64,000 bases of DNA from an uncultured Candidatus Saccharibacteria bacterium (GCA_964357395.1 CAYHLC010000003.1:14080-78079); one strand, 5' to 3'; shown: positions 4,240-23,986, counted from the stretch's first letter. Made by a program: numbers and translations. The notes: generated by a model not told the origin, from the letters alone.

Positions 4240-5745
4240 CTAAAGATTCAGCCTCGGCCGATACTGGAGCGCTTCTAACACATGCTCGGTGTTAACTAGG
4301 TTGGAGTCGGCGAGGTCGGCGATGGTGCGAGCGAGGCGCAGTACTCGGTGGTAGGAGCGCGGAGATAAGTTCAGCGACTTGGCAGCCTTGGTGAGCGCAT
4401 CGCGTGCACCGTCTGTGATACCAATCCTTTCATCAAGGTGTTTGGATGCGAGTTCGCTATTGGTCTTGGCCTTCGCCTTCAGCTCCTGCATACGCTTCCC
4501 TTGCCTGCTACGTGCACGTTCTATCCGCTCACGCACCACTGCGGACCCTTCTCCTGTTCCACGTGCGGCCAGTTTTTCGTGTGGGATATGTGGCACCTCG
4601 ATCCACACATCGATGCGGTCGATGATTGCGCCGGATAGCTTGCGGTTAAAGCGGGCTGCCTCCCTCGGGTCAGTAATATGTGTCGGCGGGTTCATTGCAG
4701 CGATCAGCATAATGTTGGCAGGAAAGGTGACGGTGCCCGCGGAGCGGCTGACGGTAATCATTCTGTTTTCGAGGGGCTCGCGCAGGGCCTCAATAGTCCG
4801 TCGGTCGAACTCAGGAAACTCGTCGAGGAATAGTACGCCGCGGTGCGCGAGCGTCACCTCGCCTGGCCGCGGGATGTTGCCGCCACCAACCAAGGCCGGA
4901 TAGCTCGATGTATGGTGGGGCGAGCGTATTGGTGGCTCGATCATGATCGTCTCCTTGAGTGTCCCCGCTACCGAGTGTATCGCCGTCACCTCCACCGCCT
5001 CCTCGAACGAGAGCTGCGGCAGTATGCCAGCCAAGGCGGTAGCGAGCATCGTCTTCCCAGTTCCTGGCGGGCCGACGAGCGCGACATTGTGCCTCCCTGC
5101 TGCAGCTATCTCCATACCGCGCTTCGCTGTCTCCTGCCCTTTGATGTCTGACATATCGACGGCGGGCACGCCGCGCACGAGTACCTCCTTCGTATTACTC
5201 TTCGCTCGCCGTAGACTCTTCTCTCCGGTTAGGTGTTGCACCACCTCCGTTAGCGATGCGGCGCCATACACCACAACTCCCTCGACGAGGGCTGCCTCCT
5301 CTGCGTTCTCCTCTGGGACGATGAGCGTATGCACCTTTTTGGACGCTGCCACTTTGAGCGCTGCAGCGAGCGCCCCCTTGATGGGGCGCAAGGTTCCGTC
5401 GAGTGCCAGCTCGCCCATGAGGACTATGCCCTTGGGGTCAAAAGAAATCTCCTCGTTAGCGAGGAGATATGCGAGTGCCATCGGGAGATCAAAGACGGTC
5501 CCCTCTTTCTTCAGATCAGCGGGCGCCAAGGAAATAACTATTTTGTGATTGTGCGACTTCGGACTCTGGAAGCCAGAAAACTTGATCGCCGAGGACATAC
5601 GGTCACGCGCCTCACCCACCGCCTTGCCGGCAAGCCCGACGACAGTAAACGCGTACAGCGTACCGTTCGTAATATCGGCCTCGATAGTGACCAACTCAGA
5701 ATCAGGAAACCCGGGCTGCAAGCTGGTGACCCGAGCGAATGCCAT
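4240..5745 (-). CDS. comM: YifB/ComM family Mg-chelatase-like AAA+ ATPase
   Basis: N-terminal Lon-like domain plus AAA+ core (VALVGPPGTGKTMLA...; sensor motifs) and a C-terminal ComM tail. 501 aa. Confidence 0.9.
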   Translation of the reverse strand: MAFARVTSLQPGFPDSELVTIEADITNGTLYAFTVVGLAGKAVGEARDRMSSAIKFSGFQSPKSHNHKIVISLAPADLKKEGTVFDLPMALAYLLANEEISFDPKGIVLMGELALDGTLRPIKGALAAALKVAASKKVHTLIVPEENAEEAALVEGVVVYGAASLTEVVQHLTGEKSLRRAKSNTKEVLVRGVPAVDMSDIKGQETAKRGMEIAAAGRHNVALVGPPGTGKTMLATALAGILPQLSFEEAVEVTAIHSVAGTLKETIMIEPPIRSPHHTSSYPALVGGGNIPRPGEVTLAHRGVLFLDEFPEFDRRTIEALREPLENRMITVSRSAGTVTFPANIMLIAAMNPPTHITDPREAARFNRKLSGAIIDRIDVWIEVPHIPHEKLAARGTGEGSAVVRERIERARSRQGKRMQELKAKAKTNSELASKHLDERIGITDGARDALTKAAKSLNLSPRSYHRVLRLARTIADLADSNLVNTEHVLEALQYRPRLNL

Positions 5746-7431: not shown

Positions 7432-9628
7432 CTCTCCTATTATGCCCTATTCCGCCATGCCTCCCGCTGCCTGATTGGCCACCATCGGGGGACGCCGGAG
7501 CTGGCGCCAGGTTTTTTCGTACTGCAAACTCGGGGTCGATTTGTTTGATAGACAAGTTGACTCGCCCTTGGTCATCGATTTCCTTAATGACTGCGCGGAC
7601 TACCTCGCCTTCTGCAACTGCCTCGCGTACAGATGCGATGCGGAACGGTGCGAATTCCGAAATATGTACCAATCCTTCCTGCTTGCCTGCACCGAGTTTC
7701 ACAAACGCACCAAAGTCCATAATGCGTGTCACCTGTCCCTCAATCACATCGCCAGCCTGGTACACACGCGTCATATCGCGGATGATCTCGGCCGCCTTCT
7801 CTGGTGCGTCGCCGACTCCGGTAATAAAGATCGATCCGTCATCCTCAATCGAGATGCCAGACACCCCTGTGTCCTCTTGGATCTTCTTGATGTTCTTGCC
7901 GCCAGGACCAATAACGAGGCCGATAGCGTCGACTGGCACGCTTAAGGTCACGATCTTTGGTGCGCGTGGCGATAGGTTAGGCCGTGGTGCGGGGAGTGCG
8001 GTCGTAATAACGTCCAAAATCTTCATACGTGCAATGCGTGCGTGCTCCAATGCCTCGACCATAACTGTCGGCGGGATTCCGTCCAGCTTCACATCGAGCT
8101 GTATTGCTGTCACGCCACTTTTGGTTCCAGCAACCTTGAAGTCCATGTCACCATGATGGTCCTCAGCGCCCTGGATGTCGGTTAATATCGCATAGCGAGT
8201 TGGGCCGTCATACATAACGCCCATCGCGATACCTGCAACCGGTGCCTCGATAGGTACGCCGCCATCCATGAGTGCGAGTGTCGATGCGCAGACCGAGCCC
8301 ATAGAGGTCGATCCGTTAGAGGAGAACGCTTCTGACACGAGGCGGATGGTGTAGGGGAATACTTCCTTAGCGGGTATCACTGCGCTCAATGCCTTTTCGG
8401 CAAGGGCGCCGTGGCCGATCATACGTCGGTTCATGCCACCAAAGCGACCAGTCTCGCCTACCGAGTACGGTGGGAAGTTGTAATGGTGCATGAAGCGCTT
8501 CTTGACCTCTACCCCCGAGCCCTCTATAGAGTCGACAATTTGGGAATCGTCTGGTCCGCCGAGCGTGAGAGCAGAAAAGACGTGTGTCTCCCCGCGATAA
8601 AAGATACCCGAGCCGTGAAGTACGGGGGAGAAGTCGCCTGCCGTAGCAAATAGTGGTCGGATCTCGTCCATCGCGCGGCCGTCGACACGCTTCTTTTCAT
8701 CGATCGCTTTACTGCGCAAGATCTTCTCAGTTCGTTCATCGAGGTAGGTACGCGCGGCGTCCCTCTCCTCCGGTAGCTTTTCCGCTACCAATGCGCTCCA
8801 CTTGTCCGAGAATAGCTTTTGCGACTCCTTGCCGGGCTTGCCGGTAAAGACCGCTGCCTCGAACTCGCTTTCGAGCTCTGCAAAGAGAGCTGCAATAGCC
8901 GGGTTTGCCTCTTTGGCAACAATGGCGCGCTTCGCCTTGCCCATCTCAGCAATAACCTTTTTCTGGAAGTCCTGAATCTTGTTCAATTCCACCACCCCCG
9001 CATCGAACGCCTTCCCGATGACCGCCTCCTGTACCTGCTTGGCACCCACTTCGATCATAGTGATGACGCCGTCCTTGCCACAGACCAAGAGGTCGAGTTC
9101 CGCATCATCGGCGTTGCGATCCGCGTAGCTTGGGTTCACGATAAATGTGTCGCTCCCCTTCTTCTTACCAAGTCGCACGGCGGAAACTGGGCCGCCCCAC
9201 GGAATGTCGGATGTGCCGAGTGCGAGGGACGCAGCTATAACACCGAGTACGTCTGGGTCGTCCTCTGCGATTGAGAGTACAGTAACCACTACCTGCACGT
9301 CCTTGCGGAGCGCAGCGTTGAAGAGTGGGCGTATGGTGCGGTCGACGATGCGGCCCGAGAGAACTGCATCGTCAGACGGACGCCCCTCGCGACGGATGAA
9401 GCGCGATCCGAGGATCTGCCCTGCTGCATAGAAGCGCTCCTCGTACTCTACCGAGAGCGGGAAGTAGTCGATGTCGAGGCGCTCCTTGCTGCCCATAACT
9501 GCAGTAACAAGGACGATGGTGTCGCCCATACGGAGGAGGACCGAGCCGTTGGCCTGCCCCGCTAGGTCAGTAAACGTCGCCTCGACCTTGCGGCCGCCTA
9601 TCTCGGTCTCAAACTTTTTTTGTTGCAT
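7394..9628 (-). CDS. pnp: polynucleotide phosphorylase (PNPase)
   Basis: Two RNase PH domains, KH and S1 domains, and a C-terminal RGG-like tail (GGQSGSGRHGGIGHNRRDGGNRGPRR). 744 aa. Confidence 0.95.
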   Translation of the reverse strand: MQQKKFETEIGGRKVEATFTDLAGQANGSVLLRMGDTIVLVTAVMGSKERLDIDYFPLSVEYEERFYAAGQILGSRFIRREGRPSDDAVLSGRIVDRTIRPLFNAALRKDVQVVVTVLSIAEDDPDVLGVIAASLALGTSDIPWGGPVSAVRLGKKKGSDTFIVNPSYADRNADDAELDLLVCGKDGVITMIEVGAKQVQEAVIGKAFDAGVVELNKIQDFQKKVIAEMGKAKRAIVAKEANPAIAALFAELESEFEAAVFTGKPGKESQKLFSDKWSALVAEKLPEERDAARTYLDERTEKILRSKAIDEKKRVDGRAMDEIRPLFATAGDFSPVLHGSGIFYRGETHVFSALTLGGPDDSQIVDSIEGSGVEVKKRFMHHYNFPPYSVGETGRFGGMNRRMIGHGALAEKALSAVIPAKEVFPYTIRLVSEAFSSNGSTSMGSVCASTLALMDGGVPIEAPVAGIAMGVMYDGPTRYAILTDIQGAEDHHGDMDFKVAGTKSGVTAIQLDVKLDGIPPTVMVEALEHARIARMKILDVITTALPAPRPNLSPRAPKIVTLSVPVDAIGLVIGPGGKNIKKIQEDTGVSGISIEDDGSIFITGVGDAPEKAAEIIRDMTRVYQAGDVIEGQVTRIMDFGAFVKLGAGKQEGLVHISEFAPFRIASVREAVAEGEVVRAVIKEIDDQGRVNLSIKQIDPEFAVRKNLAPAPASPDGGQSGSGRHGGIGHNRRDGGNRGPRRDNW

Positions 9629-12865: not shown

Positions 12866-13110
12866 GCTGCACCACCGAGGAGTGCGAGGCAGAATGCCCC
12901 ATAGAGTACGGTGAGTGCAGTTCGCTTTACGGTAAACTTTTCTCTATCAGGCACAAGAGATCGCGCAGTAATGTGCGGTGGAGACATCATCGCGTGACGT
13001 ACCTCGACCATATGTAATTTAGTTGTACTCCTATCAAATATGAAGGGAAAGTGAGCAAAGGGGATAAGCTTGGGGATTTATTGTGCGAAGTGTGGGGATA
13101 TACTACCTAT

Positions 13111-14028
13111 ATGATGCTCTCGGAGCTGAAACGCGAGTTCCTCGAGTACCTGGAGATCACCAAGGGCCGCTCTATCAAGACGGTGACGAACTATGACCAC
13201 TACCTCTCGCGTTTCCTCAAGTTTGCAAAGACCGAGTCCCCTTCTGGGATTACGGACGCAGTGATTCGAGAGTATCGGCTTTGGCTGAATAGGCAGCCAG
13301 GGCCGACAGGTACACTCAAGAGGAAGACCCAAAACTTCCACCTCATTGCCCTTCGCGCATTCCTCAAGTACCTCGCCAAGCGAGATGTGAAGAGTTTGCA
13401 GCCAGACAAGATCGAGCTCGCCAAGGTCCCCGAGCGCTCGCTCGACCTCATAACCCATGCGGAACTCGAGCGGCTTATGAACGCGCCCTCCGAAGCTTCA
13501 GCGAAGGAGGGGGCCCCAAAATTAAAGGCGTTACGGGACAAGGCGATATTGGAACTCCTCTTCTCTACCGGGCTCCGCGTCTCCGAGCTGTGCTCCTTGG
13601 ACTCCGACCTCGACCTGACTCGAGACGAGTTGTCGGTGCGCGGTAAGGGGGAGAAGATCCGAGTCGTGTTCCTCTCTGACCCTGCCAAGAAAGCAACCGC
13701 TGCGTATCTGAAGGCCAGGAAGGACATGGAAGAGGCACTATTCGTAAGCTACGGCAGAGGCAACCAGAAGCCAGGGCGACTCACGCCACGTGCGGTCGAG
13801 ATGTCGGTCAAATACTATGCGATCAAAGCGGGTATTACAAAAAAGGTGACGCCCCACGTCATCCGCCACTCGTTCGCGACCGACTTGCTGGAGAACGGCG
13901 CCGACCTCCGCTCAGTGCAGGCGCTCCTCGGCCACGCCAATATTCAGACTACGCAGGTCTACACCCACGTCACCGACAAGCACCTGCGTGACATCCACAA
14001 ACGCTTCCACGGCCAACGCCGCGGCTAG
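13111..14028 (+). CDS. tyrosine site-specific recombinase, XerC/XerD family
   Basis: The C-terminal catalytic region (RHSFATDLLENGADLRSVQALLGHANIQTTQVYTHV; R..H.R.Y tetrad) and the N-terminal core-binding domain align with XerC from MMLSELKREFLEYL. The track ORF starts 60 nt earlier at a GTG. Confidence 0.9.
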   Translation: MMLSELKREFLEYLEITKGRSIKTVTNYDHYLSRFLKFAKTESPSGITDAVIREYRLWLNRQPGPTGTLKRKTQNFHLIALRAFLKYLAKRDVKSLQPDKIELAKVPERSLDLITHAELERLMNAPSEASAKEGAPKLKALRDKAILELLFSTGLRVSELCSLDSDLDLTRDELSVRGKGEKIRVVFLSDPAKKATAAYLKARKDMEEALFVSYGRGNQKPGRLTPRAVEMSVKYYAIKAGITKKVTPHVIRHSFATDLLENGADLRSVQALLGHANIQTTQVYTHVTDKHLRDIHKRFHGQRRG

Positions 14029-14089
14029 CAGTTGCTACTAGTAGTAACCAGCGCCCCCCAACCAAGGTTAGATAGATGGCGCCAGAGAT

Positions 14090-14146: not shown

Positions 14147-15166
14147 ATGGAACGCACATACGTATTGATCGGTGCACTCGTCAGCTTTGTCGCACTTGCG
14201 ACGGCGACGGAAGCAATTGCTGACGTCATTCCTGACCCTGAGCAGGTGGACACCTCGTTCGACTCGCTCGAGCGCCTACTTGCGCAGGTGCACTCGCCCT
14301 ACGTCACCGCAGACTCCCTCACACAACTGAAGAAGGTGTTGGAGTATCGCGTACACGACCTTGATGTGTTGATCGCAGCAATGAAGGAGGTAGCACCTGA
14401 TGACTCAAACGAGATGGTCAAGCTTATGCGCGCTCGGAACGAACTTGCAGTTATAGAGGATCGTATCGATCAACTACTTCCTCGTCTCGAGGAGCTGGAG
14501 CGCAGTGGCAAGAGTGCATACCGGATCAACATGGCTGCAGCGGAGGACGCAAAGCTTATCCCGAAGTTTGATGTCGACGAGGTAGAGGAGATACACAAGC
14601 GCACGGTCGGGCTCTACAACGGAGTGACGTACGGTGAGGTTTTGATCAAAGACAAAAACGCAAACTTGATCGAGGTTAAGCTCACTGACCTTATTAAGCT
14701 CGGCAATACGTCAGACAAGGTATCGCCCGCTCTCGCACACCGCTTCGTTGAGATTTTGCAAAACACGAACAGTGGAGCTAGTGGATGGCAGCTGAACTCC
14801 GGGGCATTCGAGCATCCAAAAGCACATGGTGGCGGCTCGGAACACATCCGTAGTCCGCAAATGCTTAACTGCATTGATATCAGGCCGACCCTTGATAAGG
14901 GTATGGACCCACGGCGCCTTGGCGAGTTCCTCCTTGCAGCGCAGAAGAGCGGGGATATCTCCTTCTTCCAGCTCGAGACGGGACCTGATTACACTGTCGA
15001 CCAGATGAAGGCCGCTCTTGTTAAGGAGTGGGGCGGCAAGGCAACTCCTGATGAGCTGAAGTATATGCTGAGCAAGGTCCACGCAGGCGGATCTGGTATC
15101 CACTTCCACACCGAGTTTAAAGGCCCCGCGTTCCACACAGCGTATCCCGATACGCGTGCTGCATAG
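14147..15166 (+). CDS. hypothetical secreted protein (339 aa)
   Basis: Signal peptide MERTYVLIGALVSFVALATATEA. No recognisable family. Confidence 0.55.
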   Translation: MERTYVLIGALVSFVALATATEAIADVIPDPEQVDTSFDSLERLLAQVHSPYVTADSLTQLKKVLEYRVHDLDVLIAAMKEVAPDDSNEMVKLMRARNELAVIEDRIDQLLPRLEELERSGKSAYRINMAAAEDAKLIPKFDVDEVEEIHKRTVGLYNGVTYGEVLIKDKNANLIEVKLTDLIKLGNTSDKVSPALAHRFVEILQNTNSGASGWQLNSGAFEHPKAHGGGSEHIRSPQMLNCIDIRPTLDKGMDPRRLGEFLLAAQKSGDISFFQLETGPDYTVDQMKAALVKEWGGKATPDELKYMLSKVHAGGSGIHFHTEFKGPAFHTAYPDTRAA

Positions 15167-18818: not shown

Positions 18819-18893
18819 GCTCCCGTAGTGAAACGGATATCACTCCAGTCTTCGAAACTGGCATTTCAAGTTCGAGTCTTGACGGGAGCACCA
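18819..18893 (+). tRNA. tRNA-Arg (anticodon TCG), CCA encoded
   Basis: GCTCCCG TA GTGA AACGGATA TCAC T CCAGT CTTCGAA ACTGG CATT TCAAG TTCGAGT CTTGA CGGGAGC A CCA. Cloverleaf hand-folded. Confidence 0.8.
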
Positions 18894-18900
18894 ACTAATG

Positions 18901-18971
18901 TGCGGGCACGGGGAATCGGACCCCGATCTATTGATTGGCAACCAATTGTTCTACCATTGAACCATGCCCGC
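18901..18971 (-). tRNA. tRNA-Gly (anticodon GCC), no encoded CCA
   Basis: Reverse complement GCGGGCA TG GTTC AATGGTA GAAC A ATTGG TTGCCAA TCAAT AGAT CGGGG TCCGATT CCCCG TGCCCGC A. It is convergent with tRNA-Arg and 7 nt away. Confidence 0.8.
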
Positions 18972-18976
18972 GACCC

Positions 18977-19699
18977 TCATATACTCTCATAGTATGCCCG
19001 CATCATCAACTCTTTAGGTAGTAGATCTAACCACGCCAGCATTTTGACCTTGAAGTATGAACTGGACACATAGATCAAGCAGATTCCGTTTTTAAGTCGC
19101 CTCGTCTTGTGCTTACCCTGGATCACCGTGCTCCCTCTAAACTGGGTAGACTCAAGCTGTGTACTGTCAGCCCAGAACTTAAAACTCTCTGCCTTGTCAT
19201 TATCCGGGTATAGAAGTAGGGATGCCCTGACGTATTCTTTTGGGAGTCCACATGCTTCGCGTAGGAACATGCTGAATAGTCGAATCATCTGCGGGTCTGT
19301 ATTAGTCAGTTTTGTGACACTTTTGGTTAGTTTGTCTCCCTCTCCCCAGTACAGCATGATTCCTGTGATGAAAAGTGGGTTGTACTTCAAGGCGCCAAAC
19401 TCAGCTAGAGCCTCTTCCTTAGCCTGTTCGTAGAGTCTGGCTAACTCCCCTCCCCTCGCCTTGTTCAGCGACCGCATCCTGACGGTGCCCTGCTCGATAC
19501 TACTCCTCTGTAGCCGTTCCTTTATCAACTGAGACCACTTCTGATCCTGGAACCATCCCGATAAGGTGCTAACAGGAACCTTCATTCTCTTCGATATTTC
19601 CTTATAGCTCATACCCCTCATACGTAGCCGCTCTATTTCTTTCTTATCGTCTCTCATATGATACATTGTACAGTACGATACAGAGGTTCGCAGTTTCAC
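18977..19699 (-). CDS. HTH-domain protein of unknown family in low-GC islet (possible homing-endonuclease-like/mobile gene)
   Basis: N-terminal sigma-70 region-4/resolvase-like HTH (MSYKEISKRMKVPVSTLSGWF). The central FITGIMLYWGEGDK is reminiscent of, but not conclusively, a LAGLIDADG-type motif. Lower GC than its surroundings and abuts tRNA-Gly. Confidence 0.45.
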   Translation of the reverse strand: MKLRTSVSYCTMYHMRDDKKEIERLRMRGMSYKEISKRMKVPVSTLSGWFQDQKWSQLIKERLQRSSIEQGTVRMRSLNKARGGELARLYEQAKEEALAEFGALKYNPLFITGIMLYWGEGDKLTKSVTKLTNTDPQMIRLFSMFLREACGLPKEYVRASLLLYPDNDKAESFKFWADSTQLESTQFRGSTVIQGKHKTRRLKNGICLIYVSSSYFKVKMLAWLDLLPKELMMRAYYESI

Positions 19700-20294: not shown

Positions 20295-20365
20295 CGGGGC
20301 GTCGTATACCGGTAGTACGCCTGGTTTGGGACCAGGTAGATAGGGTTCGATTCCCTACGCCCCGA
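20295..20365 (+). tRNA. tRNA-Pro (anticodon TGG), no encoded CCA
   Basis: CGGGGCG TC GTAT ACCGGTA GTAC G CCTGG TTTGGGA CCAGG TAGA TAGGG TTCGATT CCCTA CGCCCCG A. Confidence 0.75.
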
Positions 20366-20453
20366 CCGAATGGAAAAGCGGCCACATCACGTGGTCGTTT
20401 TTTGCCATTGACACGGCTTCATTTGTAGTATAGACTATAAGTAAATAGAGAAT

Positions 20454-21857
20454 ATGAGTAAAGTTCTAAACAAAGAGCTCGGATCGCAGATTGTCCGCCT
20501 GAGAAAGGGGGCAAAGCTGACACAGGCGCAGCTAGCAAAGCAGGCCGGGGTGCATGTGACCTTCCTGTCAGGGGTGGAAAAGGGACAGCGGAACGTAACT
20601 GTGGACACTGCGCAGAAAATTGCGACTGCGCTCGGGGTTCAGCTCCCCGAGCTTTTTGCATCAGAGCTTAACAAGCTTGACGGCAGGCGTGTTGCAACCC
20701 CAGTTAACTTTGTAAAGCTCGGTGGCACCTGGGATATGCAAGTGACTGACGACGGGCTCATGGGGGAGGGGCAGTTGGACGATAAACGCTTTGCCAAACT
20801 CGAGGAGGAGGTTGGGTACGACGAGCGGGTCCTCGTGTCGAGGCTCGATGCGGCATTCAGGGGCACCAAGAGCATAGACACGAGCCTCTCCTCGCACCTA
20901 CCATGGGTACCGGACATCAATACGCTGGTGAGTGGCGACTTTTTCCCGATTTTCAGTGGTGACAGCTCGCACTATCGACCAGGTGTAATGTCCCCTGCAG
21001 TTGCATACCTCCTTAGCAAGGCAACGAGCGAGCCTGGAAAGCAGGTTATAGCTGGTATGGGCACTGATACGGTAGACATGCTCCTGCCGTACCTCGATAC
21101 ATTCCTCTTCGACCGCTCTGACATATATCCCATACTCGTTTCTGGCGCTAACCTCAGCTTCCGGGAGCCAAACTCTGACGCACCAAAGAACTTTCGAGAT
21201 CTGGCACAAGCAACACATCTCCCACTCCAGCCTGGCGCCTACTACATCTTCGACCACACCATCTTTAAAGGGGGCGATATCGTTAAGGTCGACCCGAATG
21301 AGAACCCAACCTCGATCGAGGGGATGACCACCTTCTTTGCACCACAGCGCACCCACGCGCGTGTCGGGATATTGAACACTGGCTCGATCCGTAGGGAGAG
21401 TCACGCAGGGATCCTCGGCCCAGTCATTGCTTACAGTGCGGAGCAGTTCTTTGATACGATGAACTCAGTTTTAACAGTGAACTTGGGCGACATGCCGGAC
21501 ACTGAGGCTGTAGTTAAGGCAATGAAAGATCCGAAAACAAAGGCGATAGTTGTGATCTCGCACGCGCTCGGCAACGCTCCATACCCAATCCGACGCGCTG
21601 CGATAGAGGCAGCCAAGGCAGGGAAGTTGGTTATCAACGTCAGTCGCGCACTCATGGGCAATACTAACGAGCGTTACTACGTATCGCTCGGCAGTATTAA
21701 CGAACGCGAGCTGAAGGGTACGGGGTACATGACCATTGAGGGTGGCAGGCTCTCAAATCGGACCGCCAAGGCACTCATAGTCCGAGCTCTGCTCGAAGGT
21801 CGGGACCAAAAGTCGGCCAGTGACCTGATAGAGCAATACAAGGCAAGGACCTTCTAG
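20454..21857 (+). CDS. fusion protein: XRE-family HTH DNA-binding domain + L-asparaginase/glutaminase-like domain
   Basis: N-terminus LRKGAKLTQAQLAKQAGVHVTFLSGVEKGQRNVTVDTAQKIATALGV is an HTH_XRE. The remainder carries the asparaginase motifs KLGGTWDM (TGGTIAG-like), AGMGTDTVDML (hGTDTm) and ISHALGNAPYP (GxGNGN-like). 467 aa. Confidence 0.7.
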   Translation: MSKVLNKELGSQIVRLRKGAKLTQAQLAKQAGVHVTFLSGVEKGQRNVTVDTAQKIATALGVQLPELFASELNKLDGRRVATPVNFVKLGGTWDMQVTDDGLMGEGQLDDKRFAKLEEEVGYDERVLVSRLDAAFRGTKSIDTSLSSHLPWVPDINTLVSGDFFPIFSGDSSHYRPGVMSPAVAYLLSKATSEPGKQVIAGMGTDTVDMLLPYLDTFLFDRSDIYPILVSGANLSFREPNSDAPKNFRDLAQATHLPLQPGAYYIFDHTIFKGGDIVKVDPNENPTSIEGMTTFFAPQRTHARVGILNTGSIRRESHAGILGPVIAYSAEQFFDTMNSVLTVNLGDMPDTEAVVKAMKDPKTKAIVVISHALGNAPYPIRRAAIEAAKAGKLVINVSRALMGNTNERYYVSLGSINERELKGTGYMTIEGGRLSNRTAKALIVRALLEGRDQKSASDLIEQYKARTF

Positions 21858-21908
21858 CCAATATCGGAATTTGGGGCGTAACGCCAGCTTCATCTATACG
21901 TCATTAGT

Positions 21909-22442
21909 ATGTCAGCTATGGGAGCAAAAGAAGACGCATTCTTGGACGCGTTCCAGACACACTCGCCGGCATTGTTTCGGCATGCCTTTTTTCGCATCGG
22001 CGATAGGGACCGGGCGCTCGAGCTTACCCAAGACGCCTTTATGAAGGCGTGGGACTATGTACGCGCTGGCGGCGAGGTCCGGACTCCCAAGAGCTTCCTC
22101 TACCGCGTCATAAACAATTTGATCGTCGATGAGTATCGCCGCACCAAGACACAGTCCTTGGATGCAATGGTGGAGGCCGAGGGCTCGGCAGCGGAGGCTT
22201 TGTTTGCGGAAGGGAGCTTGTGGGAGGTTGAGGAGACCGCCGATACAGCTGTTATGGTGGGGAAGGTGCGTGAGGCCGTTAAGGAACTCCCCGAGAGCTA
22301 CCGCACCGCTGTCACTATGCGCTTTATGGATGGTCTTAGCCCAAAGGAGATTGCCAAGATGCTCAATTGTACTGAAAATGTAGTGTCAGTTCGGATCCAC
22401 CGGGCCGTCATTAGACTGAGACAGATGTTGTCACATGCATAA
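21909..22442 (+). CDS. ECF-type RNA polymerase sigma-70 factor
   Basis: Region 2 (LTQDAFMKAWDY...FLYRVINNLIVDEYRR) and region 4 HTH (LSPKEIAKMLNCTENVVSVRIHRA). 177 aa. Confidence 0.9.
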   Translation: MSAMGAKEDAFLDAFQTHSPALFRHAFFRIGDRDRALELTQDAFMKAWDYVRAGGEVRTPKSFLYRVINNLIVDEYRRTKTQSLDAMVEAEGSAAEALFAEGSLWEVEETADTAVMVGKVREAVKELPESYRTAVTMRFMDGLSPKEIAKMLNCTENVVSVRIHRAVIRLRQMLSHA

Positions 22443-23454
22443 ATACGATCTGAGGGTATTGGTCAAACAAGTTGGCCAAGCATACGATATGAACGATGCG
22501 GAGCGAGAGAGGCTCCGAAGTGTAGTCGTTGGCTACATGGAGATGAAGCCGATACGCACACGTCCCACGCAGGCCTTTGTGCCAACCTGGGGTCACCTGT
22601 GGCGGGCACTGGTACTCGCACTTATTGCGCTCATCACACTTTCTGGCTCAGCGTCTTATGCCGCAGAGGGCGCACTGCCAGGCGACGCACTGTACGGAAT
22701 CAAGGTGGCTATCAACGAGGAGCTCCGCGCAGCATTTGTATGGAATCCGGAAGCACGCGCCACGCTCGCGTTCGAGCGTGCGGAGCGCAGACTCGAGGAG
22801 GCAGCAACACTTCTGAAGGCGGGCAAGCTGACCCCCGAGCTGTTGGTAACGATCGCCTCTAATTTTGAAATGCAGGCCGAGCAGGCGACCAAGGATGTAG
22901 ACGCGCTGAACAAAACTCATTCCGCATCTGCAATTACTATCGCATCCAAGTTCGAGACACGCGTCTCCGCACACAGCACCCTCCTTGGCACTATGGGTGC
23001 AAAGGATGATGGGACATTGGCAACGGTGCTCGAGAAAACGAAGGTGCAGGTCGCCGGGGTGCGCGCCGAAGCGGAGCAGGTCGCCAAAGTCGCTGTTCTT
23101 AGAGAGCCGTCGGCGCTCATGCTCGTCTCGACCTCTACGCTTCCAACGACGAACGATACTTCAGAGCAGAAGGCCGCCGCAAGCGCTGCGAGCGTCGCTC
23201 TGAAGGCGGCACTCGAGGGCCTACAGGCGCAGCTTGGGGACGTTGAGCAGGATGACACGGGCAGCGCGCGCCTCAGCGCCTATATTGCTGCAGCAACATC
23301 AGCAAACGCGGCTGGCGACGCACTCCTCGCCGGAGGGGACTACGCCGGCGCGTACCGCCGGTATCAAGCAGGCCTCATCGCAGCTGAACAACTTTCCGTA
23401 TTCCTCAAAGCCTCCATCGATCTCAAGATCCCCGTCCTCGAGCTTTCGTTCTAA
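22435..23454 (+). CDS. putative anti-sigma factor / DUF5667-like single-pass membrane protein
   Basis: Overlaps the sigma stop by 8 nt. One TM (LVLALIALITLSG) then LPGDALYGIK, the DUF5667-type motif, and a long Ala-rich helical extracytoplasmic region. Confidence 0.6.
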   Translation: MHKYDLRVLVKQVGQAYDMNDAERERLRSVVVGYMEMKPIRTRPTQAFVPTWGHLWRALVLALIALITLSGSASYAAEGALPGDALYGIKVAINEELRAAFVWNPEARATLAFERAERRLEEAATLLKAGKLTPELLVTIASNFEMQAEQATKDVDALNKTHSASAITIASKFETRVSAHSTLLGTMGAKDDGTLATVLEKTKVQVAGVRAEAEQVAKVAVLREPSALMLVSTSTLPTTNDTSEQKAAASAASVALKAALEGLQAQLGDVEQDDTGSARLSAYIAAATSANAAGDALLAGGDYAGAYRRYQAGLIAAEQLSVFLKASIDLKIPVLELSF

Positions 23455-23986
23455 GGCGGTTACCTTCGGTAAGTTCAATCGCGATGGCTACAGCCGCACT
23501 TGGAGTATCGGCAGATCGGATTAGGATCCGCTTTCGGTCGTCGAGGTACTGATTCGCAAGTTTGTTAGCCCAACCGCCAGTGCCAGCGAGTACGACGACA
23601 GGAATGTTGGCTTGATAAGCAATCGCGATTTCTGTTAGCGTACCGGAGCCACCGCTGAGGGCAATAATTGCGTCGCAGCTGAGAACGAGAGTAAACTCGC
23701 GTCCGCCACCACGCTCCATGCCCGAGGCGATTATGATATCCGCGTTGTCCTTTTCGTACACATCAAGTCCTTTGCAGTAGGTGACGCCCACCGTTAGGCC
23801 CCCGCCTCGTTTGGCTCCTCGGCAGGCAGCGGTCGAGAGCGAGTCATAATCTTTTTCTGCACCGAACATGAGTGTGGCGTCGCTCTCTGCAACACAATAC
23901 CCAACTTCCTCGGCCAACCGTTCGAGGTCGGCCGAGTAGTTGAGGTCAGCCGCAGATCCCATAACTCCTATTTGTAGTTTTCTCAT
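23423..23986 (-). CDS. TIGR00725/LOG-like (SLOG) Rossmann-fold protein
   Basis: IGVMGSA...IIALSGGSGTLTEIAIAYQANIPVVVLAGTGGWAN is the LOG/DprA-like nucleotide-binding motif. 187 aa. Confidence 0.7.
   Translation of the reverse strand: MRKLQIGVMGSAADLNYSADLERLAEEVGYCVAESDATLMFGAEKDYDSLSTAACRGAKRGGGLTVGVTYCKGLDVYEKDNADIIIASGMERGGGREFTLVLSCDAIIALSGGSGTLTEIAIAYQANIPVVVLAGTGGWANKLANQYLDDRKRILIRSADTPSAAVAIAIELTEGNRLRTKARGRGS

Follow-up and report, generated by a model that had tools for sequence, protein, structure and literature searches.

A helix-turn-helix domain fused to an asparaginase-like module in Patescibacteria, with a conserved candidate operator at its own promoter

We analyzed a stretch of 64,000 nucleotides (the window) from an uncultured Candidatus Saccharibacteria bacterium (GCA_964357395.1 CAYHLC010000003.1:14080-78079) and, within it, a gene encoding a 467-amino-acid protein in which an XRE-type helix-turn-helix (HTH) domain is followed by a region resembling L-asparaginases. 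An original prediction, made from the DNA alone, had described this fusion together with two genes lying downstream, one for an extracytoplasmic function (ECF) sigma factor and one for a DUF5667-like protein. The fused gene and the elements at its promoter are the following:

20454..21857, + strand: fused gene, 467 amino acids, with HTH, linker and asparaginase-like N- and C-domains (open reading frame (ORF), Pfam, structural model)
20496..20654, + strand: XRE/Cro-C1 HTH, controller-protein-like, residues 15-67 (Pfam HTH_3, PDB, PADLOC)
20664..20693, + strand: flexible linker, residues 71-80 (predicted local distance difference test, pLDDT, <50 at residues 71-78)
20697..21353, + strand: asparaginase-like N-domain, residues ~82-300, carrying T92, S171, T204-D205, K278 and an insertion of ~33 residues
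21438..21854, + strand: asparaginase-like C-domain, residues ~329-467, with G373-N374 of the GxGN motif (Asparaginase_C; alignment to E. coli asparaginase II)
20408..20436, + strand: sigma-70-type promoter candidate, TTGACA (20408-20413), 17-nt spacer and TAGACT (20431-20436), the best regional site with 10 of 12 matches
20433..20443, + strand: operator candidate box 1, GACT-ATA-AGTA, inside the 17-mer TATAGACTATAAGTAAA (20429-20445) and overlapping the -10 hexamer
20450..20460, + strand: operator candidate box 2, GAAT-ATG-AGTA, inside the imperfect tandem 17-mer TAGAGAATATGAGTAAA (20446-20462) and spanning the start codon

Pfam profiles matched both parts of the protein. HTH_3 (PF01381) was found at residues 15-67 (E 3.9e-14, 52.8 bits against a gathering score of 23). 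The C-terminal region, which had been expected to match the asparaginase family, scored above cut-off with both of its domains, each by a small margin: Asparaginase (PF00710) at residues 147-282 (29.4 bits, cut-off 22.5) and Asparaginase_C (PF17763) at residues 350-455 (36.2 bits, cut-off 34.6). The motifs quoted in support of the fusion are all present, KLGGTWDM at residues 88-95, AGMGTDTVD at 200-208 and HALGNAPYP at 370-378. An AlphaFold model built from the family alignment reached a mean pLDDT of 85.6 and a predicted template modelling score (pTM) of 0.78, low confidence being limited to residues 71-78 of the linker and two loops. When this model was compared with the PDB using Foldseek, the top 50 matches were all class-1 asparaginases (E 6e-13 to 5e-11, target template modelling (TM) score 0.64-0.73, 15-19% identity), and the best ones were type I enzymes, namely 5ot0 from T. 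kodakarensis (E 5.7e-13) and those from guinea-pig, Y. pestis, P. horikoshii and E. coli (AnsA). Fold, Pfam score and catalytic residues place the predicted enzyme part in the class-1 asparaginase superfamily. Scores with the profiles of individual enzymes were far lower than their cut-offs, both for type I asparaginase (TIGR00519, 25.5 bits against 260.5; NF006998, 21.7 against 376) and for the GatD equivalogs (TIGR02153, 23 bits against 324; NF003217, 14 bits against 310). Orthology with GatD was ruled out on these scores, and the match to GatD 1zq1 was weaker than that to E. coli asparaginase II. As judged by profile comparison, the enzyme part is not an orthologue of AnsA, AnsB or GatD.

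Residues were mapped by aligning a profile of the enzyme part with two known enzymes, E. coli asparaginase II (3eca, E 1e-9) and the asparaginase of W. succinogenes. In the E. coli numbering, T204-D205 (21063-21068) corresponds to T89-D90, K278 (21285-21287) to K162, and S171 (20964-20966), which lies within GDSSHY, to the substrate-binding S58, while G373-N374 fall in the GxGN motif of the C-domain. T92 (20727-20729), in KLGGTWDM and immediately after the strand formed by residues 82-89, was equated with the nucleophile T12; this assignment relies on motif and strand position and not on the hidden Markov model alignment. The catalytic Thr, Thr-Asp and Lys, whose integrity the original prediction had left to a structural check, are intact, together with the Ser. 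Among the fused proteins, GGT(T92)WDM, DSSH, GTDT, K and GN are kept in every member apart from conservative changes (GGS in P0038, DGS in P0018-20), and the catalytic residues are likewise kept in almost all relatives that have no HTH. The family has invariant motifs of its own, GGTWDM, FSGDSSHYR and SDAPxNF, and a family-specific insertion of ~33 residues, forming two extra helices, after the lid loop of the N-domain. No Tyr equivalent to E. coli Y25, a member of the Thr-Tyr-Glu triad, was found at positions 93-115 in the 31 aligned members. Taken as a whole, the modelled module looks like a working asparaginase-type amidohydrolase of which neither substrate nor rate can be inferred. The suggestion that the fusion makes an enzyme-sensor transcription factor or a moonlighting amidohydrolase is reasonable in view of the fold and the intact residues.

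We consider it doubtful that the domain is a pseudo-enzyme which binds an amino acid or amide without turning it over, making the protein an ordinary one-component repressor like BzdR, where an XRE HTH is joined to a shikimate-kinase-like domain (PMC3602430). That precedent, the absent Tyr, the insertion after the lid loop and the very low scores with asparaginase profiles such as TIGR00519 would all fit such a sensor. However, degenerate sensor domains usually lose the residues in question, and here the nucleophile Thr, the Thr-Asp-Lys triad and the substrate Ser persist in every fused member and in nearly all of the HTH-less ones, the latter having no DNA-binding role that could explain it.

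The distribution of the protein was assessed in two ways. Among 5.8 billion proteins, a word-indexed search picked out only 37 relatives, mostly full-length HTH plus asparaginase proteins, the named ones coming from metagenome-assembled genomes (MAGs) of Patescibacteria, Kaiserbacteria and Parcubacteria. A partial NCBI entry (P0008), labelled helix-turn-helix domain-containing protein, matches the window protein with 100% identity along 287 amino acids. An exhaustive HMMER scan with residues 80-467 against 1.84 billion cluster representatives gave 62 matches at E <= 1e-3, 51 of them at E <= 1e-10; the annotated ones among the 62 were all from Patescibacteria, and matches of asparaginase size (~320-360 amino acids) with canonical motifs appeared only above E 1e-6. 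Since the matches are few and canonical asparaginases are met only above that value, the enzyme part is, on profile evidence, a tiny and sharply separated clade of the asparaginase superfamily. The same architecture recurs in other genomes, where the original prediction had proposed to look for it: there are about 30 distinct full-length proteins with it, and because these derive from independent metagenomes and MAGs, the fusion is not an artefact of assembly or gene calling. When a neighbour-joining tree was made from the enzyme region, the proteins with a Pfam-confirmed HTH all fell in one clade, and three apparent exceptions within it look like truncated gene calls or fragments; a single fusion event is the parsimonious reading of this tree. 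In genome-resolved loci the fused form was found in Parcubacteria-type lineages (Kaiserbacteria, Moranbacteria, Paceibacterota), and the HTH-less form has a broader spread across Patescibacteria. Two clade members, P0046 (642 amino acids) and P0047 (563 amino acids), carry N-terminal extensions of ~216 and ~152 residues, respectively, that match no Pfam family and are possibly other unrecognised domains placed on the same enzyme module. No paper on an XRE-asparaginase fusion, or on asparaginase-like proteins of the candidate phyla radiation (CPR) in this role, was found, nor was an asparaginase-fold transcription regulator described in the searchable literature; databases carry automatic names only.

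The HTH domain is related to the controller (C) proteins of restriction-modification (R-M) systems. Its best PDB matches are C.AhdI (1y7y, E 2.7e-6) and C.BclI (2b5a), and its best PADLOC model is Control_protein PDLC03665 (E 3.8e-14); by these comparisons, R-M controller proteins are its closest relatives. At the start of the fused gene the 17-mer TATAGACTATAAGTAAA is followed directly by its imperfect copy TAGAGAATATGAGTAAA, giving 2 matches in the window against 0.02 expected. Read as half-sites, GACT-ATA-AGTA-N6-GAAT-ATG-AGTA, this element consists of two inverted repeats 17 bp apart. C-boxes, as published, read GACT-N3-AGTC-N4-GACT-N3-AGTC (PMC2175313); the window has a variant of this layout that is conserved, with 6 nt in place of 4 between the boxes and AGTA as the outer half-sites. 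Inverted repeats were also sought, using 6-nt seeds, in the promoter and the 51-nt gap after the gene, and none was found; the arms of the palindromes are only 4-5 nt long, and the boxes were recognized by alignment.

Conservation of the element was followed in the other loci. The -35 hexamer and the block downstream of it are conserved in L018, L020, L001 and L002, the block being near-invariant and the spacer between them variable, and the same two-box arrangement occurs in L020, L002, L021 and L024. The core ACT-N3/4-AGT was counted 9 times in the interval -60..+12 of 14 fused loci (~0.35-0.58 expected), a number reached by 0 of 2000 shuffles, and upstream of 10 HTH-less genes it had 2 matches, both in one locus. 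Perfect palindromes from distant lineages are among the 9: L022 has TACTTATAAGTA, and L021 has TTTACT-TATG-AGTAAA, which spans its ATG. For the half-site hexamer TTTACT/AGTAAA there were 10 occurrences ahead of fused genes, where 0.6 would be expected, and a single one ahead of HTH-less genes (0.85 expected). Elsewhere in the window, ACTNNNAGTAA has one extra site at 14037 (2 observed, 1.05 expected, consistent with chance), and TTACT-N4-AGTAA was not found. The extra site is a palindrome, TACTAGTAGTA (14037-14047), that fits ACT-N3-AGTAA; it lies 9 nt past an integrase-family recombinase gene (13051-14028) and ~50 nt before the TTGACA promoter-like hexamer of an unannotated 339-amino-acid ORF (14147-15166), not overlapping the promoter-like sequence.

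Autorepression is the best supported of the mechanistic inferences that can be drawn from these sequences, and the parallel with the published C-box layout fits such a reading. Our best explanation, to which we would give an even chance, is that the fused protein is a trigger enzyme of a patescibacterial subclade, an enzyme and a regulator in one polypeptide that represses its own gene and responds to an amide substrate. In it, some ten flexible residues link a controller-like HTH to a predicted amidohydrolase of the class-1 asparaginase/glutaminase-like kind, strongly diverged but with its catalytic core intact. The enzyme body would oligomerise in the manner of its class and, since class-1 asparaginases are dimers or tetramers, would hold the HTH domains in pairs. 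These pairs would bind the two C-box-like inverted repeats, 17 bp apart, at the -10 hexamer and the start codon, and their occupancy would block both RNA polymerase and the ribosome, resulting in negative autoregulation. The active site is predicted to start ten residues after the linker and to be closed by the conserved lid loop, so that binding or turnover of the amide, most likely Asn or Gln, and closure of the lid could alter the affinity for DNA. The level of the enzyme, and any further targets in the genome, would then follow the supply of amide nitrogen.

Several points tell against this explanation. Firstly, the operator motif was defined after inspecting the same sequences in which it was counted, several of the loci that carry it are close relatives and hence not independent, and the background used for the motif is mostly coding DNA. 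Secondly, box 2 is in part the conserved Met-Ser-Lys coding start, whose conservation could serve translation and not binding, and the boxes depart from C-boxes in both spacer length and outer half-sites, which are not AGTC. Thirdly, the missing lid-loop Tyr could mean slow turnover, a different chemistry or another substrate. Finally, the 64-kb window holds no other promoter-overlapping operator-like site, and a regulon beyond the gene itself is unproven.

This last point, together with the mostly monocistronic state of the gene in its relatives, would also suit plain negative autoregulation, in which the HTH only sets a constant enzyme level with no control by a ligand, as controller proteins do through concentration-dependent autoregulation (PMC2175313). 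We regard this as quite unlikely: a tether of ten residues connects the HTH with the catalytic strand and the lid loop, a position that suits coupling, and fusion to an enzyme is a costly route to simple autoregulation, although neither argument is decisive. Were plain autoregulation of an ordinary asparaginase all that is at work, the fusion would be a minor curiosity of domain architecture. If the protein is instead a trigger enzyme, its sensor would be an apparently active asparaginase/glutaminase-type enzyme, making a concrete link from amide-nitrogen supply to gene expression with a defined DNA site, the boxes at 20433-20460. To our knowledge, gene regulation has hardly been explored in the ultra-small Patescibacteria (CPR), which probably rely on partner organisms for their amino acids.

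Around the fused gene, the window contains the following features:

21909..22442, + strand: ECF-type sigma factor, 177 amino acids (Sigma70_r2 and r4_2, TIGR02937), a neighbour in this genome only
22435..23454, + strand: single-pass membrane protein with DUF5667, 339 amino acids, candidate anti-sigma factor by position only
20295..20367, + strand: tRNA-Pro (UGG), ARAGORN
20370..20408, + strand: terminator-like hairpin (A-tract, stem, T-tract), between tRNA-Pro and the fused-gene promoter (RNA fold, z-score against shuffles)

The fused, sigma and DUF5667 ORFs are laid out as the original prediction described them, co-directional and with short gaps: 51 nt separate the fused gene from the sigma ORF, and the sigma and DUF5667 ORFs overlap by 8 nt (ATGCATAA). 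The sigma protein is recognized by Pfam through Sigma70_r2 and r4_2, and scores 80.8 bits with TIGR02937 (ECF superfamily, cut-off 42.9). The 339-amino-acid protein has DUF5667 at residues 79-163 (Pfam, E 3.6e-11) and a single hydrophobic segment at residues 58-76, and gene position makes it a candidate anti-sigma factor; a search of the literature on DUF5667 found none. On the upstream side, the hairpin at 20370-20408 has a folding energy of -18.6 kcal/mol (z -4.54, 0 of 200 shuffles equally stable) and is absent from the list of a consensus terminator scan. It is terminator-like and would insulate tRNA-Pro from the promoter of the fused gene.

The conservation of this neighbourhood was analyzed by tblastn of the window neighbours against 17 genome loci, by inspection of ORFs, and from the Pfam-annotated contexts of eight further fused homologues (for L021, on a contig of 709 kb, ~4 kb on each side of the gene). 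Relatives at 55-78% identity share a backbone that runs from the CCA-adding enzyme and YraN through the fused gene and a variable slot to a TrpR-like protein, a trypsin-like protease and HU (L001, L002, L018, L019, L020, L021, L023 and L024). In the window the slot is filled by the ECF sigma gene, the DUF5667 gene and a convergent SLOG-cluster-4 gene; in L018 and L020 it holds a small hydrophobic ORF and in L019 a second asparaginase gene and guaA, and it is empty in L021, L023 and L024. No sigma factor or DUF5667 gene was found beside the fused gene in any of the 13 other fused loci, among them those of relatives at 67-78% identity. As a rule the fused gene stands by itself, and several of these loci have a convergent gene directly downstream. 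The tRNA-Pro gene, upstream of the fused gene in the window, is downstream in L001 (~5600-5680), and in L002 (~7470-7530) the same conserved leader is found downstream and the tRNA sequence breaks off, which indicates that the promoter-plus-gene cassette and the tRNA have been rearranged locally with respect to each other. Because the slot genes vary, no partner is conserved and the tRNA changes side, this cassette behaves, in the comparison of loci, as an autonomous unit, and the position of its own promoter behind a strong terminator-like hairpin supports the autonomy of the fused gene.

The emphasis that the original prediction placed on the sigma/DUF5667 pair did not hold in this comparison, and linkage with the pair was rejected as not conserved; its presence beside the fusion is, by comparative context, incidental to this genome. 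A signalling module made of the HTH-asparaginase protein, the ECF sigma factor and the DUF5667 anti-sigma candidate is largely refuted on this basis and is highly improbable. The co-directional arrangement, the 51-nt gap and the 8-nt overlap would allow repression of the fused gene to lower sigma expression here, and since the terminator scan listed nothing of the kind for the gap, the sigma gene may be co-transcribed with the fused gene in the window, as a lineage-specific consequence and not as the function of the fusion. However, relatives at 67-78% identity keep the outer synteny with other genes in the slot, and no operator-like site precedes the sigma gene. That the protein is a C protein with an acquired enzyme domain regulating an R-M or other defence system is barely credible: the HTH scores best with Control_protein models and C.AhdI/C.BclI and the operator layout is C-box-like, but there is no nuclease, methyltransferase or PADLOC defence protein nearby, and housekeeping synteny (CCA enzyme, YraN, tRNA, trypsin-like protease, HU) is conserved across relatives. 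The defence-system reading was rejected, the PADLOC matches arising only from the HTH with no neighbour scoring.

Other observations were made at these loci. The SLOG cluster-4 gene (LDcluster4, E 2.8e-30; 23423-23986, - strand) overlaps the 3' end of the convergent DUF5667 gene by 32 nt and, like the sigma pair, is not in the same slot of relatives. The small hydrophobic ORFs of the slot encode ~76-78 amino acids (directly after the fused gene in L018:1664-1897 and L020:5440-5676; L019:5947-6177) and have no obvious mutual similarity. Upstream in the window, a 240-amino-acid ORF (18977-19699, - strand) matches HTH profiles only weakly, near its N terminus and always below Pfam cut-offs, and has no tblastn match in L001 or L002; it lies just downstream of tRNA-Gly (18900-18971), with tRNA-Arg (18819-18893) beyond. 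Inside the fused coding region, at the end of the HTH domain (codons ~59-67), there is a terminator-like element, a perfect 8-bp GC-rich hairpin followed by a T-run (20630-20652). An attenuator giving an HTH-only product was rejected, as this stretch lacks conservation in L001 and L002 already.

The HTH-less relatives suggest a metabolic context for the enzyme module. Four of 13 HTH-less loci directly adjoin gatC-gatA, in three gene arrangements (identified with Pfam, ORFs and, for gatB, tblastn): murT, a cobQ-type gatD, the enzyme gene, gatC, gatA and then gatB in L010 (3898-9991), the same order in L012 (714-5057) as far as gatA, within which the locus ends; the enzyme gene, gatC and gatA in L013 (5932-8419); and gatC, gatA and the enzyme gene in L016 (4170-7236). 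Other HTH-less contexts differ, and tblastn found neither a second copy of the enzyme nor a gatCAB-like gene in the 64-kb window. This adjacency is circumstantial and suggests a link to glutamine-dependent amidation or amide-nitrogen handling; the stand-alone relatives beside gatCAB may point to an accessory of bacterial tRNA-dependent amidation that has so far gone unrecognised. Paralogues closer to canonical asparaginases were also seen near clade members (L015:9082-11762, L019:3207-5907, L026:7665-8996), and in L019 a gap of 31 nt separates the HTH-fused gene from those for a 358-amino-acid asparaginase and guaA (GMP synthase) downstream. A wider conjecture, which we put forward tentatively and consider unlikely, takes the clade for an amide-nitrogen module that is specific to Patescibacteria and linked to glutamine-dependent amidotransferases, with gatCAB, murT/gatD and guaA as recurrent neighbours; the HTH-fused subclade would then be the first transcription factor on an asparaginase fold, a catalytic sensor of Asn or Gln supply, probably from the host, that sets its own level and possibly that of a wider regulon through C-box-like operators.

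Compared with known systems, the window protein shares features with several and coincides with none of them. With class-1 L-asparaginases (AnsA 2p2d, 5ot0 and 1wls; AnsB 3eca) it has in common the two-domain fold (Foldseek E ~6e-13, target TM 0.65-0.73) as well as the nucleophile Thr of GGT, the Thr-Asp of GTDT, the Lys, the substrate Ser and GxGN; it differs by its 15-19% identity, the missing lid Tyr, the ~33-residue insertion and the N-terminal DNA-binding domain. The R-M controller proteins (C.AhdI, C.BclI, C.PvuII, C.Esp1396I) are the closest relatives of the HTH, and the candidate boxes of the window recall the two adjacent inverted repeats of the GACT-N3-AGT type at their own promoters; such C-box-like repeats would imply autoregulation by two dimers. 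However, these are stand-alone proteins of ~80 amino acids encoded upstream of a restriction endonuclease gene, and neither holds for the 467-amino-acid fusion, the neighbours of which are the CCA enzyme, YraN, tRNA-Pro, the sigma factor, the DUF5667 protein and the SLOG protein, with no R-M gene. The boxes in the window also cover the -10 hexamer and the start codon, a geometry of repression, and not the -35 region where C proteins activate. By architecture and context, the window protein is not a member of the controller-protein family. Archaeal GatD, the glutaminase subunit of GatDE, is likewise an asparaginase-fold protein tied to tRNA-dependent amidation, and the HTH-less relatives adjoin gatC-gatA(-gatB); in contrast to it, the window protein is far below the cut-offs of the GatD models, and these bacteria carry GatA as glutaminase; GatE was not seen, though no search aimed at it was made. 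In B. subtilis, AnsR is an XRE-family repressor of ansAB. Set beside the window protein by description only, it is similarly an XRE regulator linked to asparaginase expression; it differs in being a separate protein that controls a separate asparaginase gene.

The closest parallels to the proposed trigger enzyme are proteins that combine a DNA-binding domain with an enzyme or enzyme-like module in one polypeptide, so that occupancy by a metabolite can be read as transcription. BirA, NadR and PutA are such trigger enzymes or enzyme-derived one-component regulators. BzdR, described above, and RbkR, a riboflavin kinase with a DNA-binding domain (PMC5397151), follow the same plan. In the window protein the module has the asparaginase fold, for which we found no description in this role, and if the explanation proposed here is right, this fold would join the enzymes recruited as transcription-factor modules.

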